A DNA stretch of 64,000 nucleotides from Schmidtea nova. Taxonomy: Eukaryota. How positions within the stretch are numbered: position 1 is the stretch's first letter; every line of letters begins with the position of its first letter. The position numbers and the translations under genes were made by a program. Shown piece after piece: positions 26,827 to 48,552 of the stretch. The stretch is from contig CM097882.1 of the NCBI GenBank assembly GCA_044892505.1, positions 182,900,001-182,964,000 on the forward strand. Reading direction: 5' to 3'. The notes under the pieces are model-generated. The model had not been told where the DNA came from, ran no database searches, and saw nothing but the letters and a program-made list of their open reading frames with translations.

Positions 26827-27157
26827 CAACTTTGTTTTTATGCGGAAAAGGTGAGCTCAATGACAACAGAGAAATTTAAAATCAGAATGTTGGGAGCAGA
26901 AATAGTAACCGAAAGAGTAATCGAGACGAAAGCGAGTTGCGTGGAAATAGATAGTTACAATCAGAGAATTAAAACAAATTGGAGAAATAAACACAACAAC
27001 ACAATGAAATAGAAAAATTAAACAAATGCATTCATAAATAACAGGTCGGGACGACAATTTACCGAAACACTGGGGGAGGCTTTAAACTGTCGAAAACGAA
27101 ACACAGTACTACTTTTCCAATAATATTAACACAGTATTTAAATAAATTATCTAGGAA

Positions 27158-27619
27158 ATGGAGGAAAAACTGAAAGAAATCGAAGAATTTTTCAACACCG
27201 AGAACGAAACATTTGAGACAGTCTGCGAAAAAATAACCCGAATAAGAGCATCCGAATATGAGGAACCTACGACACAAACTGAGGAAACAACTGAGTTTAT
27301 AAAAATCATAGAGAAAGTAAATAAACTCGATATAAATACGCGATATAAATGGTACAAAGCACGATTAGAGGATGCCGAGTTGAATATCAGATGCCGACAT
27401 ATAGAACAGCAGTTAAGCCTAACATATAACCGATGGATGTCGCAAGGGGTCGAGGCAGCAAAACAATATAAACGATGTTACATATGCGAAGACAGTGAAA
27501 TCCAAATAATGTTTCTACCATGCGGACATTTTCGATTTTGTAAAAACTGTGCGAATAAGTGTGATGAGTGCCCCATGTGCAATTTCTCTGTAACTGATAA
27601 AATTGTAGTTTATTTATAA
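27158..27619 (+). CDS. RING-finger protein with IAP-type C-terminal C3HC4 RING, no BIR
   Basis: CYICEDSEIQIMFLPCGHFRFCKNCANKCDECPMC followed by a terminal VVYL*, typical of IAP/MDM2-class RINGs. Confidence 0.85.
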   Translation: MEEKLKEIEEFFNTENETFETVCEKITRIRASEYEEPTTQTEETTEFIKIIEKVNKLDINTRYKWYKARLEDAELNIRCRHIEQQLSLTYNRWMSQGVEAAKQYKRCYICEDSEIQIMFLPCGHFRFCKNCANKCDECPMCNFSVTDKIVVYL

Positions 27620-28092
27620 TAAACATTTAGAGTGTTAATATATTGTATCGAATGACAAAGTCAGGGGAGCAATCAACAATGTTAATTAATTTTTGAGCTA
27701 CTATCAAGTAGTCCGTTAAGCACCCATTGGGAGGTACCAGTTGATCAACCCACTCGGGGTATATAGAAAGGGGCCAATCGCAAATGTTGGAAAGCTTTTG
27801 TGATGTGATTGATCACCACATCCCGCATTAGTAGACCAACGCGATCTTTTTGTATATTTTGGTTGGGGAGAGAAATAGGGAAAACCCCGATGAGGTAAGA
27901 TGCGCGCAGAGAAAATAATAAAAATTGAATTATGACTGATCAGCGAAAGAATTAGTAATAAAACAAAGAATCGAGGAATTATAGAGAAAAATAAGAGGTG
28001 CATAATCAGCTCGCATGAAATTGAGAGAACTCAGCTGAGAAATTGTAGTCGCTAGCGAAGTTAAGAATTACGATTAACCGGTTAAGGAAAAT

Positions 28093-28276
28093 TTATTAGA
28101 ATTTGTCCCTTGAAACAAAGGGTTATTAGAATTTGTCCCTTGAAACAAAGGGTTATCAGCGGTTTGTCCCTTGAAACAAAGGGTTATTAGAATTTGTCCC
28201 TTGAAACAAAGGGTTATTAGAATTTGTCCCTTGAAACAAAGGGTTATCAGCGGGTTGTCCCTTGAAACAAAGGGTT
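28093..28276 (+). repeat. 30-bp tandem array, 6 copies, each with a CCCTT-GAAACA-AAGGG hairpin
   Basis: TTATTAGAATTTGTCCCTTGAAACAAAGGG and variants. Confidence 0.92.
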
Positions 28277-28320
28277 GAGGCCAAAGAGCCATATTGAATG
28301 ACCTAGCTAGGCGTTATTGA

Positions 28321-28524
28321 GAGATATGATTTAAGGCCAATAGAGCCATTTGAGATAATTGAGATATGAATTTAAGGCCAATAGAGCCATTCGAGATAAA
28401 TGAGATATGAATTTAAGGCCAATAGAGCCATTTGAGATAATTGAGATATGAATTTAAGGCCAATAGAGCCATTTGAGATAGTTGAGATATGAATTTGAGG
28501 CCATAAGAGCCATTTGAGATAATT
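28321..28524 (+). repeat. 41-bp tandem array, about 5 copies
   Basis: GAGATATGAATTTAAGGCCAATAGAGCCATTTGAGATAATT. Confidence 0.9.
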
Positions 28525-45273: not shown

Positions 45274-45364
45274 ATAAATAAAGCGAAAAATTGTAAATAT
45301 GTAAAAACAAAAACAGGAAAAATCAAAAAATAGATAACAAATCAAGTGTATATATCATTGTAGA

Positions 45365-46759
45365 ATGAATACAGAAGGAAAAGCCGAAGAGCGGATAATC
45401 GAAATTTTGAGAGCCGAGAACAGGAAATGGAGTCAGAGACTCACTTGTGTAAATTGTAAAAACATAATATTGAAACCAAGACAAACCCTATGCGGATGCA
45501 GGGTATTTACCAAATGCATACACGAGTTAAGTATGAAAAGACCACCAGAATGTCCAGAATGCAAAGAAGGACAAATAAAATTCGAAGAAACCGGACCAGA
45601 TAGAGCAACTCAGAGAGAAATCATGAACACGAAAACCGAATGTATAAATCAACCATGTATATGGCAAGGACAAATACGCGATCTCGAGAACCATCTGGAG
45701 AACTGCGAGGAGAAGAGAACTGAATGTAACAAATGCCAACAAAAAATAACTATAAAGAATAAAGAGCAGCACAAAGATGAATGTAAAGAAGAGGAAAGTC
45801 TATGCGAATATTGTGGAACTCGAGAAACGAGGAGAAAGATCGAAGAAGAACACCTGAATGTAAAAGAGGAGAAAGTATGTAGACAATATGTAGGAATATG
45901 TTCAAACGAATGCGAGATAACGGTAGAAGTAAAATTACAAGAACATTGGAAAGTGTGCACGGAGAAACCAAGGGAATGTCCTTATAACAAACAGGGATGT
46001 ATGGAGAAAAGAACGCAACAAACCATGAAACAACATCTGGAGGAAGCATTACTAAAGCATGTGGAAATGACAAACGAAGCAACAAAAGAAACCGAACAAA
46101 CGATCAAAAAATTAGAAAGAGAAATAGAGTCACACAAGATAATGGTAAACCTACTGTTGGAAACCAGAGAGCAATTCGAACTAACACGAGAAAAGATGGA
46201 GAAAAAGATAAAAGCTATCGAAGAATTGGCTAAAGGAATGAAAATCCAGTACAACAAACTCACACAGGATACCGAGGAAAAGCTACCAATAGCACCATAT
46301 GTGTGGAAAGTGACAGATTTTAGAGACAAATTAACAGAGGCCCGAAACATGACAAAAACAGCAGTAATAAGCCCACCATTTTATTTATGGAGAAACGGAG
46401 CTAAAGTGAGATTGAAGCTATACCCAAATGGAGACGGAAGAGGACGGGGAACACATGTGTCAATATTTTTTTCGCTATGTAAAGGAGAATACGACGACCT
46501 AGTAGAATGGCCCTTGAAAGTAGGAGTCATTATAAGAATCAGAAGTGTAAGAAAACCAGTGGAAAAATTCTTTGAGACAGAGAAACATGCGAGTACGAGC
46601 GAGAAACCAACCACAGAATGTGGATTAGCAGCGGGAGAACCGATGTTTATAACGAAAGAAAGCCTATGGGAACGATTATATGCAGACACCCTATACATAG
46701 AAATGGAAAGGAACGAGAAAGCGGATAAAAAAGGATGGTTGACGTTACTAGAGAAGTGA
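45365..46759 (+). CDS. TRAF-family protein (RING, TRAF zinc fingers, coiled coil, MATH/TRAF-C), intronless
   Basis: CVNC..IILKPRQTLCGC RING, PDRATQREI, CIWQG...LENHL.C, YVWKVTDF, SPPFY, LYPNGDGRGRGTHVSIFF...GEYDDLVEWP. Confidence 0.93.
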   Translation: MNTEGKAEERIIEILRAENRKWSQRLTCVNCKNIILKPRQTLCGCRVFTKCIHELSMKRPPECPECKEGQIKFEETGPDRATQREIMNTKTECINQPCIWQGQIRDLENHLENCEEKRTECNKCQQKITIKNKEQHKDECKEEESLCEYCGTRETRRKIEEEHLNVKEEKVCRQYVGICSNECEITVEVKLQEHWKVCTEKPRECPYNKQGCMEKRTQQTMKQHLEEALLKHVEMTNEATKETEQTIKKLEREIESHKIMVNLLLETREQFELTREKMEKKIKAIEELAKGMKIQYNKLTQDTEEKLPIAPYVWKVTDFRDKLTEARNMTKTAVISPPFYLWRNGAKVRLKLYPNGDGRGRGTHVSIFFSLCKGEYDDLVEWPLKVGVIIRIRSVRKPVEKFFETEKHASTSEKPTTECGLAAGEPMFITKESLWERLYADTLYIEMERNEKADKKGWLTLLEK

Positions 46760-46861
46760 TCATGTAAATAATATGTACAGTTAAATACCCAAAAATTATT
46801 ATATAAACAAAAATAACTGATATATAAACCGATTAAAAATTTTTTTTCTGAAATTATAGCA

Positions 46862-47897
46862 ATGGGAAATATCGAAGTATGCTTACAGGAAATTACGATG
46901 CATCAAGCAGAAGCGATTAGCGATCATCTAGAACAGATTGAAATATGGGTCAATGCATATTATAGAAAGCAAGAGGAGGTAGAGAGACAAGCCGAATTAT
47001 TAAAAGAAGCTGAAAGATCAAATCAAAGAAGTCGAGAAAAAATAGAAGAAGTATACAATATGCTACAACAACAAAAGGAATATTACCAGGGAATGATGAA
47101 AGAGCGACGAGAGGAAAGAGACAGACAGCAGATGGAAGCTGAACACAAGATGTATTCGATTACAGAACAAGCAAGATACTGGAAGAAAGAAGAGAAAGAA
47201 TCTTACGAAAAAGCTAGAGAAATAATAGAAAGGACAGCTTATAGTGATGACTGGAAATTATATAAAGAGATCGACGAATTAAAAGACGAGTTAGAACAGA
47301 AAATCCACCAAGAAGTGTTGAATAAGAGATGGAATACAAAGAGACAGCAATTTATCCGGGAACAAGCAAAGAAAATTAAAGGACTCACCTATCAAGTTCA
47401 AAGAATGGGAGAAGAACTAGCTAATCAAGAACAACTGAAAATTATGCTCACCGGAATATGGAATCAGAAAGAAGAAGAGATGAAGAGAGATATAAATGGT
47501 TATCAAGGAGTGATTACCCAGAAGAAAATAGAGCTAAAAAGAACCAGAGAAAGGTTAAAGGAAGCGAAACAAAGTTATGAGGAAATTTAACGAATTTGAT
47601 GAAAGAAAACGAAGAATTGAAACAGAAACGAGTAACAGTACCAGCAATACCCAAAGAAGCAAGTATAACGGCAGCCGTAACAAAAATGATAAAAGAAGAC
47701 GAACAAAAGACAAAAGTAATCGAATTAGAGAAGCAAATAGAAACATTAACAGAACAAGCAAAGAGATCCAGATATCTCACATGTATCGAGATGAAGTCGA
47801 AATGTGGAGGAGCAGGGTAGTCTGGATACCACTCCCAACGAACCAAGTAGAGCCTCAGGACGAAGGTTTCTACGAACCAAACGAGACGATTGTGTAA
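46862..47897 (+). CDS. Long coiled-coil protein, probably one ORF broken by frameshifts
   Basis: 46862-47590 is heptad-rich; successive -1 shifts lead into 47596-47820 and the tail of 47577-47897. Confidence 0.5.
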
Positions 47898-47979
47898 ATA
47901 AAGCGGAAAATATATTTTTGTAAATAATTGTATGAAATGTAGTGTCAAATTGTATTGACCTATCTGTAAAGAAAACAGT

Positions 47980-48552
47980 ATGAAAAAGCTCAGAATACCG
48001 ATATTCATATACCTAATAACAATCACCCTACAAAGAGAAGATCTTCAACTCACAGAGAAGGAGCTACGAGCCCTACCCGAGAAAACCTATCAAGAGCTAG
48101 ATAAACTAATCAGCGAAGCAACACAAGAAATCACCCAACTTCAACAGATAACATTAGACAACCCAAACGACGAAAAATTTCAACAGGTCCTATATGAACA
48201 TCGAATCAAATTGAAAACAATCAGAAAAACCCTAAAAGAAGGTCGAGAACCCTTAAAAAGCTTAGCCCAAGCAGAGATAGAATATCAAGAAAAATGGATC
48301 ATCGCAATTATAATAATCCTTGCACTCAGCGTGACCATTAACGCGATCACAATCCTCATAACATCATACCGAGTGAAGATCCTAAAACAAAAAAAAGTCA
48401 TCCTGAATCGAACAACAATACAAGACATCAGAACCCAAAAGCGAATGAGAAAACACCTAAACCGAATCCAAAGTCACTACGAACTACGAACAATCAGCGA
48501 AAGAACCCCAATCCAATCCAATACCAATCATGAAATCAACGAGCTTGTGTAA
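47980..48552 (+). CDS. Coiled-coil protein with a single TM helix (190 aa)
   Basis: Helical body, hydrophobic WIIAIIIILALSVTINAITILIT, basic tail. Confidence 0.62.
   Translation: MKKLRIPIFIYLITITLQREDLQLTEKELRALPEKTYQELDKLISEATQEITQLQQITLDNPNDEKFQQVLYEHRIKLKTIRKTLKEGREPLKSLAQAEIEYQEKWIIAIIIILALSVTINAITILITSYRVKILKQKKVILNRTTIQDIRTQKRMRKHLNRIQSHYELRTISERTPIQSNTNHEINELV

Follow-up and report, generated by a model that had tools for sequence, protein, structure and literature searches.

How does a giant retroelement express a row of small accessory genes? The question is raised by a stretch of 64,000 nucleotides of the planarian Schmidtea nova (GenBank assembly GCA_044892505.1, contig CM097882.1, positions 182,900,001 to 182,964,000 of the forward strand), which will be referred to as the window and in whose numbering positions are given. 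A single long terminal repeat (LTR) element spans window 23436-52123 on the + strand, with a total length of 28.7 kb and an internal region of 22 kb. Judged by its size, long LTRs, domain order and accessory domains, all of which fit the published layout, it is a Burro-type giant Gypsy element; the Gypsy affiliation is taken from the Burro literature. The layout also suggests a dugesiid planarian as host. Its seven separate accessory open reading frames (ORFs) comprise ORF A and ORF B within the LTR, a RING-finger ORF upstream of the polyprotein region and a 3′ cassette of four ORFs downstream of it. The first-pass annotation had proposed that a message for each gene is cut from one long transcript, either by alternative splicing from an LTR leader or by spliced-leader (SL) trans-splicing. 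From genomic DNA copies, which form the evidence base for the mechanism, we consider it probable that a single LTR transcript with one leader donor undergoes cis splicing to alternative acceptors, the unspliced RNA serving as genome.

Acceptor-Like AGs before the Accessory ORFs

The six AG-ATG contexts on which that proposal was built were all found in the window, with AGs ending at 25655, 27154, 44913, 45363, 46859 and 47978, and the TTAAATTGTTAA...TAG reported before ORF A is also present in the sister-family LTR. The acceptor of ORF A (24806..24832, AG ending at 24832) includes a conserved branch-point-like motif and reads CAG in 14 copies and TAG in 2, being lost in 1 of the 17 copies; in two further sister copies (L034 and L038) the AG directly abuts the ATG. 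In 7/7 separate accessory ORFs, the ATG has a YAG no more than 6 nt away. In three control sets the same holds for 17.8% (535 other ATGs of the element), 14.5% (69 non-coding ATGs of the element) and 14.7% (231 ATGs of the flanks), which gives binomial p of 1e-6 to 6e-6. Counted strictly, the figure is 6/7, as the nearer TAG of ORF A is kept in 4/17 copies only and its conserved AG lies 15 nt upstream. The test covered the accessory ORFs; the CAG nearest to the gag ATG (29837) is 10 nt away from it. Over five families, YAG occurred within 6 nt of the ATG at 24/30 starts, a count that overstates independence because these families are related, and within 18 nt at 29/30; in three cases a second in-frame ATG was taken as the start on the basis of protein homology.

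The sites switch between TAG and CAG at position -3, and the distance from AG to ATG falls into all three phases (11/8/10), which together fit a 3′ splice site and do not fit an in-frame stop codon. Scored with a host acceptor matrix derived from 19 short introns predicted in myosin genes (9 of 28 intron calls lay outside 40-65 nt and were removed beforehand), 25/30 sites reached at least the median of the 19 host introns, compared to 19-23% of controls; the last ORF failed. Its site before the ATG at 47980 had already been called weaker, in agreement with its rank of 1144 among 2194 AGs and with the aligned family 2 site, which is AAG. Conservation among 29 close copies (AG kept in 29, 28, 29 and 28 of them) is weak evidence at 97% identity. 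Taken together, a role of these AGs, which follow a T-rich stretch, as U2-type 3′ splice sites appears well supported by the sequence comparisons.

One conserved acceptor-like site (29240..29257), 579 nt before the gag ATG, was absent from the first-pass list. It is conserved in three families, at 477-579 nt upstream of the start of gag. Its phase matches that of Gag in families 1 and 2, where a single conserved stop comes ~18-22 codons further on and is followed by a long ATG-free open frame (window 29240-29315). A Gag start codon supplied by an SL at 29257 was rejected on account of that stop, which in family 3 comes sooner.

A Genomic Copy Joined from Leader to ORF B

The most direct evidence for the donor comes from one element, L139/L011 (G000:C1, ~499.30-499.32 Mb, minus strand), both LTRs of which run from the end of the leader directly into the ORF B exon. 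The stretch absent from them measures 1562 nt in the sibling copy L134, where it runs from a GT to the ORF B AG; in the window it corresponds to the DNA from the donor at 24088 to the ORF B acceptor (AG 25654..25655). The two LTRs (1749 bp each) are 99.9% identical and flanked by their own target-site duplication, TTTC. As both share the loss and the element has its own duplication, the stretch would have been lost no later than reverse transcription, which is what a spliced RNA should produce, and we infer that the joint derives from a reverse-transcribed, cis-spliced RNA.

This type of leader continues into the GT in 77 LTRs, is joined in two and carries a point change in another two. When the 20,018 equally similar site pairs of the L139/L011 LTR were considered, 30 were bounded by GT..AG and only 2 fell on a named donor and a named acceptor. 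None of seven other resolved internal deletions was bounded by GT..AG, most of them lying at short exact repeats, so that internal deletions as splice products were rejected for all seven junctions; those of L098/L101 and L123 are outside this set.

Predicted Promoter, Leader and Donor within the LTR

A predicted promoter, consisting of a TATA box inside a palindrome (23829..23836), is kept in families 1 and 2 and in the sister family. It is followed by the predicted leader exon (23857..24087), the putative start of which is placed by the TATA box and which is free of ATG in the window and varies between copies, and by the donor GT at 24088..24089. The order of TATA box, variable leader, GT donor and T-rich DNA is common to these three families, and the GT ends leaders that are otherwise unalignable between them (38/40 in a set biased towards GTATG). 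Of the two donors that the first-pass annotation had considered, 24088 is thus both conserved and, as its equivalent, the one at the joint in L139/L011. In 39 distinct leaders 11 ATGs were counted compared to 114.7 expected, the adjoining stretches of equal length containing 126; this poverty belongs to family 1 and the sister family, with 2 ATGs in 34 leaders. A search with the TATA pattern found no leader in families 3 and 4.

The second candidate donor, at 24282, fared less well. Its GT is conserved in 17/17 copies of the family but is missing from the sister family, and searches found no joint that starts at it. Two predicted hairpins (24215..24283; -29.1 kcal/mol, a value without shuffle control) end there, just inside the first intron, and three or four repeated hairpin-like units occupy the corresponding place in family 2 (L095, ~7570-7950). 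Export or packaging signals are candidate functions for these predicted structures; a search of window 23400-30000 against Rfam gave no match. The leader and the start of the intron are hypervariable (window 23863-24198; unalignable in 18/19 copies) between the conserved TATA box and the conserved hairpin.

A Proposed Expression Plan and the Evidence against It

In the proposed plan, the LTR promoter would give rise to one long RNA, with transcription presumably starting near the TATA box, and the short leader exon would be joined by cis splicing to any one of eight acceptors, of which seven lie immediately ahead of the ATG of an ORF, so that each accessory gene would obtain its own message. 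The same donor may serve ORF A, RING, gag and the four 3′ ORFs, with introns of up to ~24 kb. For A, B and RING, the messages would likely terminate at an A(A/T)TAAA of their own, and those of the 3′ cassette would end either within the spacers or as a nested set reaching the 3′ LTR, the TGTAHATA motif found after stop codons (see below) then acting as a 3′ untranslated region (UTR) element. Unspliced RNA would be the genome. A cis donor has been reported to out-compete the SL for a downstream acceptor (PMC4558846), which we count in favour of splicing in cis.

Several observations weigh against this plan. The evidence for cis splicing is one genomic event (2 joined compared to 77 unjoined LTRs) and concerns ORF B only; moreover, the ends of the L139/L011 joint share AG exactly and 5/6 letters, and microhomology deletions are common in its family. 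The search for ORF B joints recovered the two known joined LTRs and one unspliced TAG variant, and searches for spliced copies of ORF A and of family 2 ORF B were empty. No further joint of a window-type leader to any near ATG was found, few copies having that leader; all 40 matches of the family 2 leader to any near ATG were unspliced, and donor 24282 gave no joint and one point change. Family 2 leaders are not poor in ATG (80 compared to 63.4 expected in 40 leaders), and nine are open into the donor. Among 2194 AGs, the coarse 19-intron matrix places the window sites at ranks 15 to 193 only, with the last ORF at 1144, and the kinship of the five families inflates the YAG count. Splicing to RING, gag or the 3′ cassette would remove the primer site from the RNA, which would then rarely be copied, so that genomic joints to these sites are not expected. 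Contigs from four runs of unrecorded kind, which are genomic-DNA-like and have no bearing on expression, contained no donor-to-acceptor joint among 15 of 29 and 15 of 72 joints. The claim that every gene obtains its mRNA by splicing from the LTR leader has the support of the joined copy for ORF B, and no junction, to the leader or to an SL, was seen for RING and the four 3′ ORFs. Leader-to-acceptor splicing in cis is nevertheless our best reading of the sequences, ORF B being supported by one event and the remaining sites being included by extension.

Spacers of the 3′ Cassette

The four ORFs of the 3′ cassette follow the polyprotein region at short distances. The first unit (44792..45273) consists of a 125-nt spacer with TGTAAATA at 44807 and 44819, an acceptor AG at 44912-13 and a 118-aa ORF. 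In the second (45274..46759), a 91-nt spacer (TGTAAATA at 45292; AG 45362-63) precedes the TRAF-like ORF with zf-TRAF and MATH domains. The third (46760..47897; 102-nt spacer, TGTAAATA at 46763, AG 46858-59) contains an ORF that is split in two pieces in the window copy and is a single ORF in families 2 and 3, and the fourth (47898..48552; 82-nt spacer, TGTAAATA at 47919) has a weak acceptor (AG 47977-78 or AAG ending at 47971) and the last ORF, of 190 aa. The spacers between same-strand ORFs thus span 82-125 nt in the window; when all four families are included, the range is 46-263 nt (19/19).

TGTAHATA follows the upstream stop in 17/19 spacers of the four families, at +14 to +21 in 16/17, and was found after none of 15 stops without a close downstream ORF, of which 11 have A(A/T)TAAA. 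Besides the window positions given above it is present in L095, L098, L123 and L124; none occurs in the 15-kb polyprotein region. Only 0.6% of flank windows contain it, and the 4-of-4 outcome was obtained in 0/20,000 shuffles. AATAAA is present in 11/19 spacers compared to a background of 12-29%, and in 2/4 in the window. The motif fits the Pumilio consensus. Its attachment to the stop makes it resemble a 3′ UTR element, which might, speculatively, shield long-tailed messages from decay. Planarian poly(A) signals are reported to have no UGUA upstream (PMC5068929), which leaves a role as CFIm poly(A) element unsupported and argues that TGTAHATA is not simply the host 3′-end signal.

Alternative Explanations

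The alternative that survives best, although we regard it as unlikely, is that only ORFs A and B are spliced in cis, the precursor of the 3′ cassette being cleaved in each spacer and its products capped by host SL trans-splicing. This arrangement would account for spacers that fall within the 300-nt threshold for flatworm operons (PMC12582326), for TGTAHATA in 17/19 spacers compared to 0/15 other stops, and for the failure to find a leader-to-cassette joint among the genomic copies. SL trans-splicing is reported in Schmidtea (PMC10899757, PMC12582326), flatworm acceptors are described as common to cis and trans use (PMC12582326), and the spliced mRNA of the Cer1 element exists with and without SL1 (PMC3315495). 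However, ORF B, which is joined in cis, has an acceptor of the same design; AATAAA is present in only 11/19 spacers; and no positive evidence for SL trans-splicing was obtained. Flatworm SLs end in ATG, yet the phase between AG and ATG is free (11/8/10) and differs between families for the same ORF, a mild argument since the ATG of an SL need not serve as start. A related and likewise rather doubtful version sees Burro with a built-in operon, in which the LTR genes would be spliced in cis and the 3′ cassette released from the genomic transcript by 3′-end formation and host SL trans-splicing steered by TGTAHATA. The candidate cassette would then hold four to seven host-modulating genes (TRAF, inhibitor-of-apoptosis (IAP)-like and coiled-coil candidates) with TGTAHATA ~15 nt after each upstream stop.

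A short internal promoter in front of each accessory ORF, with YAG as an initiator-like start motif, seems improbable. TATA-like words occur within 70 nt of the AG at 9/17 sites, and GTAAATA also fits a forkhead site. These words are scattered (12-65 nt), though, and missing before RING in 3/3 families; the position of TGTAHATA is set by the upstream stop and not by the downstream start; and the ORF B AG ends an exact GT..AG loss. A precedent is the accessory gene of maize Grande, reported to have its own promoter, there antisense (PMC7264820).

Even less credible is translation from one polycistronic RNA by reinitiation after each stop, helped by TGTAHATA at ~+15 and with AG as start-codon context. 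Short, mostly ATG-poor spacers and the link between TGTAHATA and stops with a close downstream ORF would suit it, but it fails to account for the YAG of A, B and RING, none of which has an ORF close upstream, for the T-rich stretch before the AG or for the spliced copy. That the AGs are a chance product of AT-rich DNA and that the joined copy arose by a microhomology deletion, for which the frequency of such deletions in this family and the single joined element could speak, is hardly tenable given p ~1e-6 in the window alone, an AG pattern conserved at 26-68% protein identity and the fact that only 2 of 20,018 site pairs fall on a named donor and a named acceptor.

Layout, Copies and Surroundings of the Element

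The 5′ LTR (23436..26802; 3367 bp) is 99.4% identical to the 3′ LTR (48758..52123), which holds a second copy of leader, donor, ORF A and ORF B, and the target-site duplication is CATG. ORF A (24848..25324) encodes 158 aa, was assigned to no family and had no match in a protein atlas search. ORF B (25661..26062) encodes 133 aa in the window copy and is longer (~196-204 aa) in copies of family 2 and in one copy of family 1. Six additional letters (window 26803-26808) separate the LTR end from the primer-binding site (26809..26825) in most copies listed; tRNA-Pro is the putative match of this site. The RING-finger ORF (PF13920), with its preceding acceptor AG, occupies 27153..27619, an AATAAA overlapping its stop. 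Between RING and gag lie three tandem-repeat arrays with units of ~30, 41 and 55 nt (window 28063-28821). The polyprotein region (29837..44791), which is in four pieces here, contains an env-like fusion domain (PF24664), protease, reverse transcriptase (RT), RNase H, integrase and ankyrin. Pfam places PF24664, RVP, RVT_1 and RT_RNaseH in this order and in frame within one ORF, with rve and ankyrin downstream; by the Burro layout, the N-terminus would be Gag. Accessory domains found by Pfam in the window were those of the RING ORF at 27158 and the TRAF-like ORF at 45365 and ankyrin, BIR being confined to family 4.

The genome contains at least 40 close copies of the window element, and a scan with the primer site gave 167 matches from several families, some double-counted. 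Compared to the window element, RING is 62-65% and TRAF 66-68% identical in family 2, TRAF is 43% identical in family 3, and RING and TRAF are 26% and 35-36% identical in family 4. The latter (L123-L124) has a longer cassette of seven ORFs with an extra gene, a BIR-RING IAP-like gene, and its LTRs are identical across the 5.4 kb compared. Protein and contig searches for close relatives outside the genome gave distant TRAFs only, or nothing. The sister-family LTR (window 12060-14940, minus strand) carries homologues of ORF A and ORF B; no internal region was found in the flanks of 10 LTRs of this type. Internally deleted lineages recur across three families (L094, L120, L202; L098, L101, L127, L191, L204, L123), some having lost the env region and others the core from RT to integrase. 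The accessory cassette is retained wherever seen, and these lineages look like complementing non-autonomous partners.

In the window the Burro copy is flanked by two inverted transposase-like elements that are 98% identical (16871-19185 and 52795-55109). Remnants at 46-2445 and 56393-60222 are, judged by their translations, probably BEL/Pao-like and small Gypsy-like, and a 575-nt satellite with inversions occupies 6350-12000.

Comparison with Known Systems

The element resembles Burro, or GYPSM1, of dugesiid planarians (PMC6431247) in its size of ~29 kb, slightly below the >30 kb published for Burro elements, in its long LTRs, in the env-like fusion domain in frame before the protease, and in accessory ORFs with RING, TRAF/MATH and ankyrin in the window and BIR-RING in family 4. 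Unlike the arrangement described there, with TRAF inside ORF1 in S. mediterranea and upstream in D. tigrina, TRAF is here separate and downstream of the polyprotein. The Burro section of that paper says nothing on expression of accessory ORFs, and no title or abstract on their splicing was found in the Burro literature; the original genome paper (Grohme 2018), outside this search, may bear on it. The element type is already known, and the proposed complex-retrovirus-like expression plan is apparently new to the literature.

In complex retroviruses, splicing of accessory messages is standard. HIV-1 and HTLV-1 likewise use a single LTR promoter and, close to the 5′ end, a single major donor, with many acceptors, each before an accessory ATG, and a conserved major donor near the predicted 5′ end of the RNA is present here as well. 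In contrast to these viruses, the element has its donor within the LTR, ahead of the primer site, as well as two ORFs in the LTR itself, and its ORFs do not overlap, several having their own poly(A)-like signals. The adenovirus major late unit joins a common leader to alternative acceptors and uses alternative poly(A) sites, but belongs to a DNA virus with a tripartite leader and unrelated sequence, and internal poly(A) sites are here predicted only. Cer1 of C. elegans is a Gypsy element with a spliced accessory mRNA, with and without SL1, for which unspliced RNA is required for Gag-Pol (PMC3315495, PMC10309623); it differs in its single spliced product, CERV, whose exons overlap gag, compared to seven or more tandem single-exon ORFs here. 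Nematode SL2-type and flatworm operons (PMC12582326) share same-strand ORFs ~100 nt apart and an acceptor just before the ATG, whereas here an upstream cis donor was apparently used at least once and no join to an SL was found. Splicing is also reported for env-like ORFs of plant elements (PMC7264820).

Burro elements shape planarian genomes and carry apoptosis- and ubiquitin-type accessory genes, and a failure of PIWI control reportedly leads to Burro expression in somatic tissue (PMC8532177). Splicing in cis predicts exact junctions that can be checked in existing planarian RNA-seq, and the stop-anchored TGTAHATA represents a new, testable cis element. If the proposed plan is true, one leader for ~8 acceptors would put a Gypsy element level with complex retroviruses in RNA processing and would imply a route for export of the unspliced RNA, as CERV provides for Cer1.

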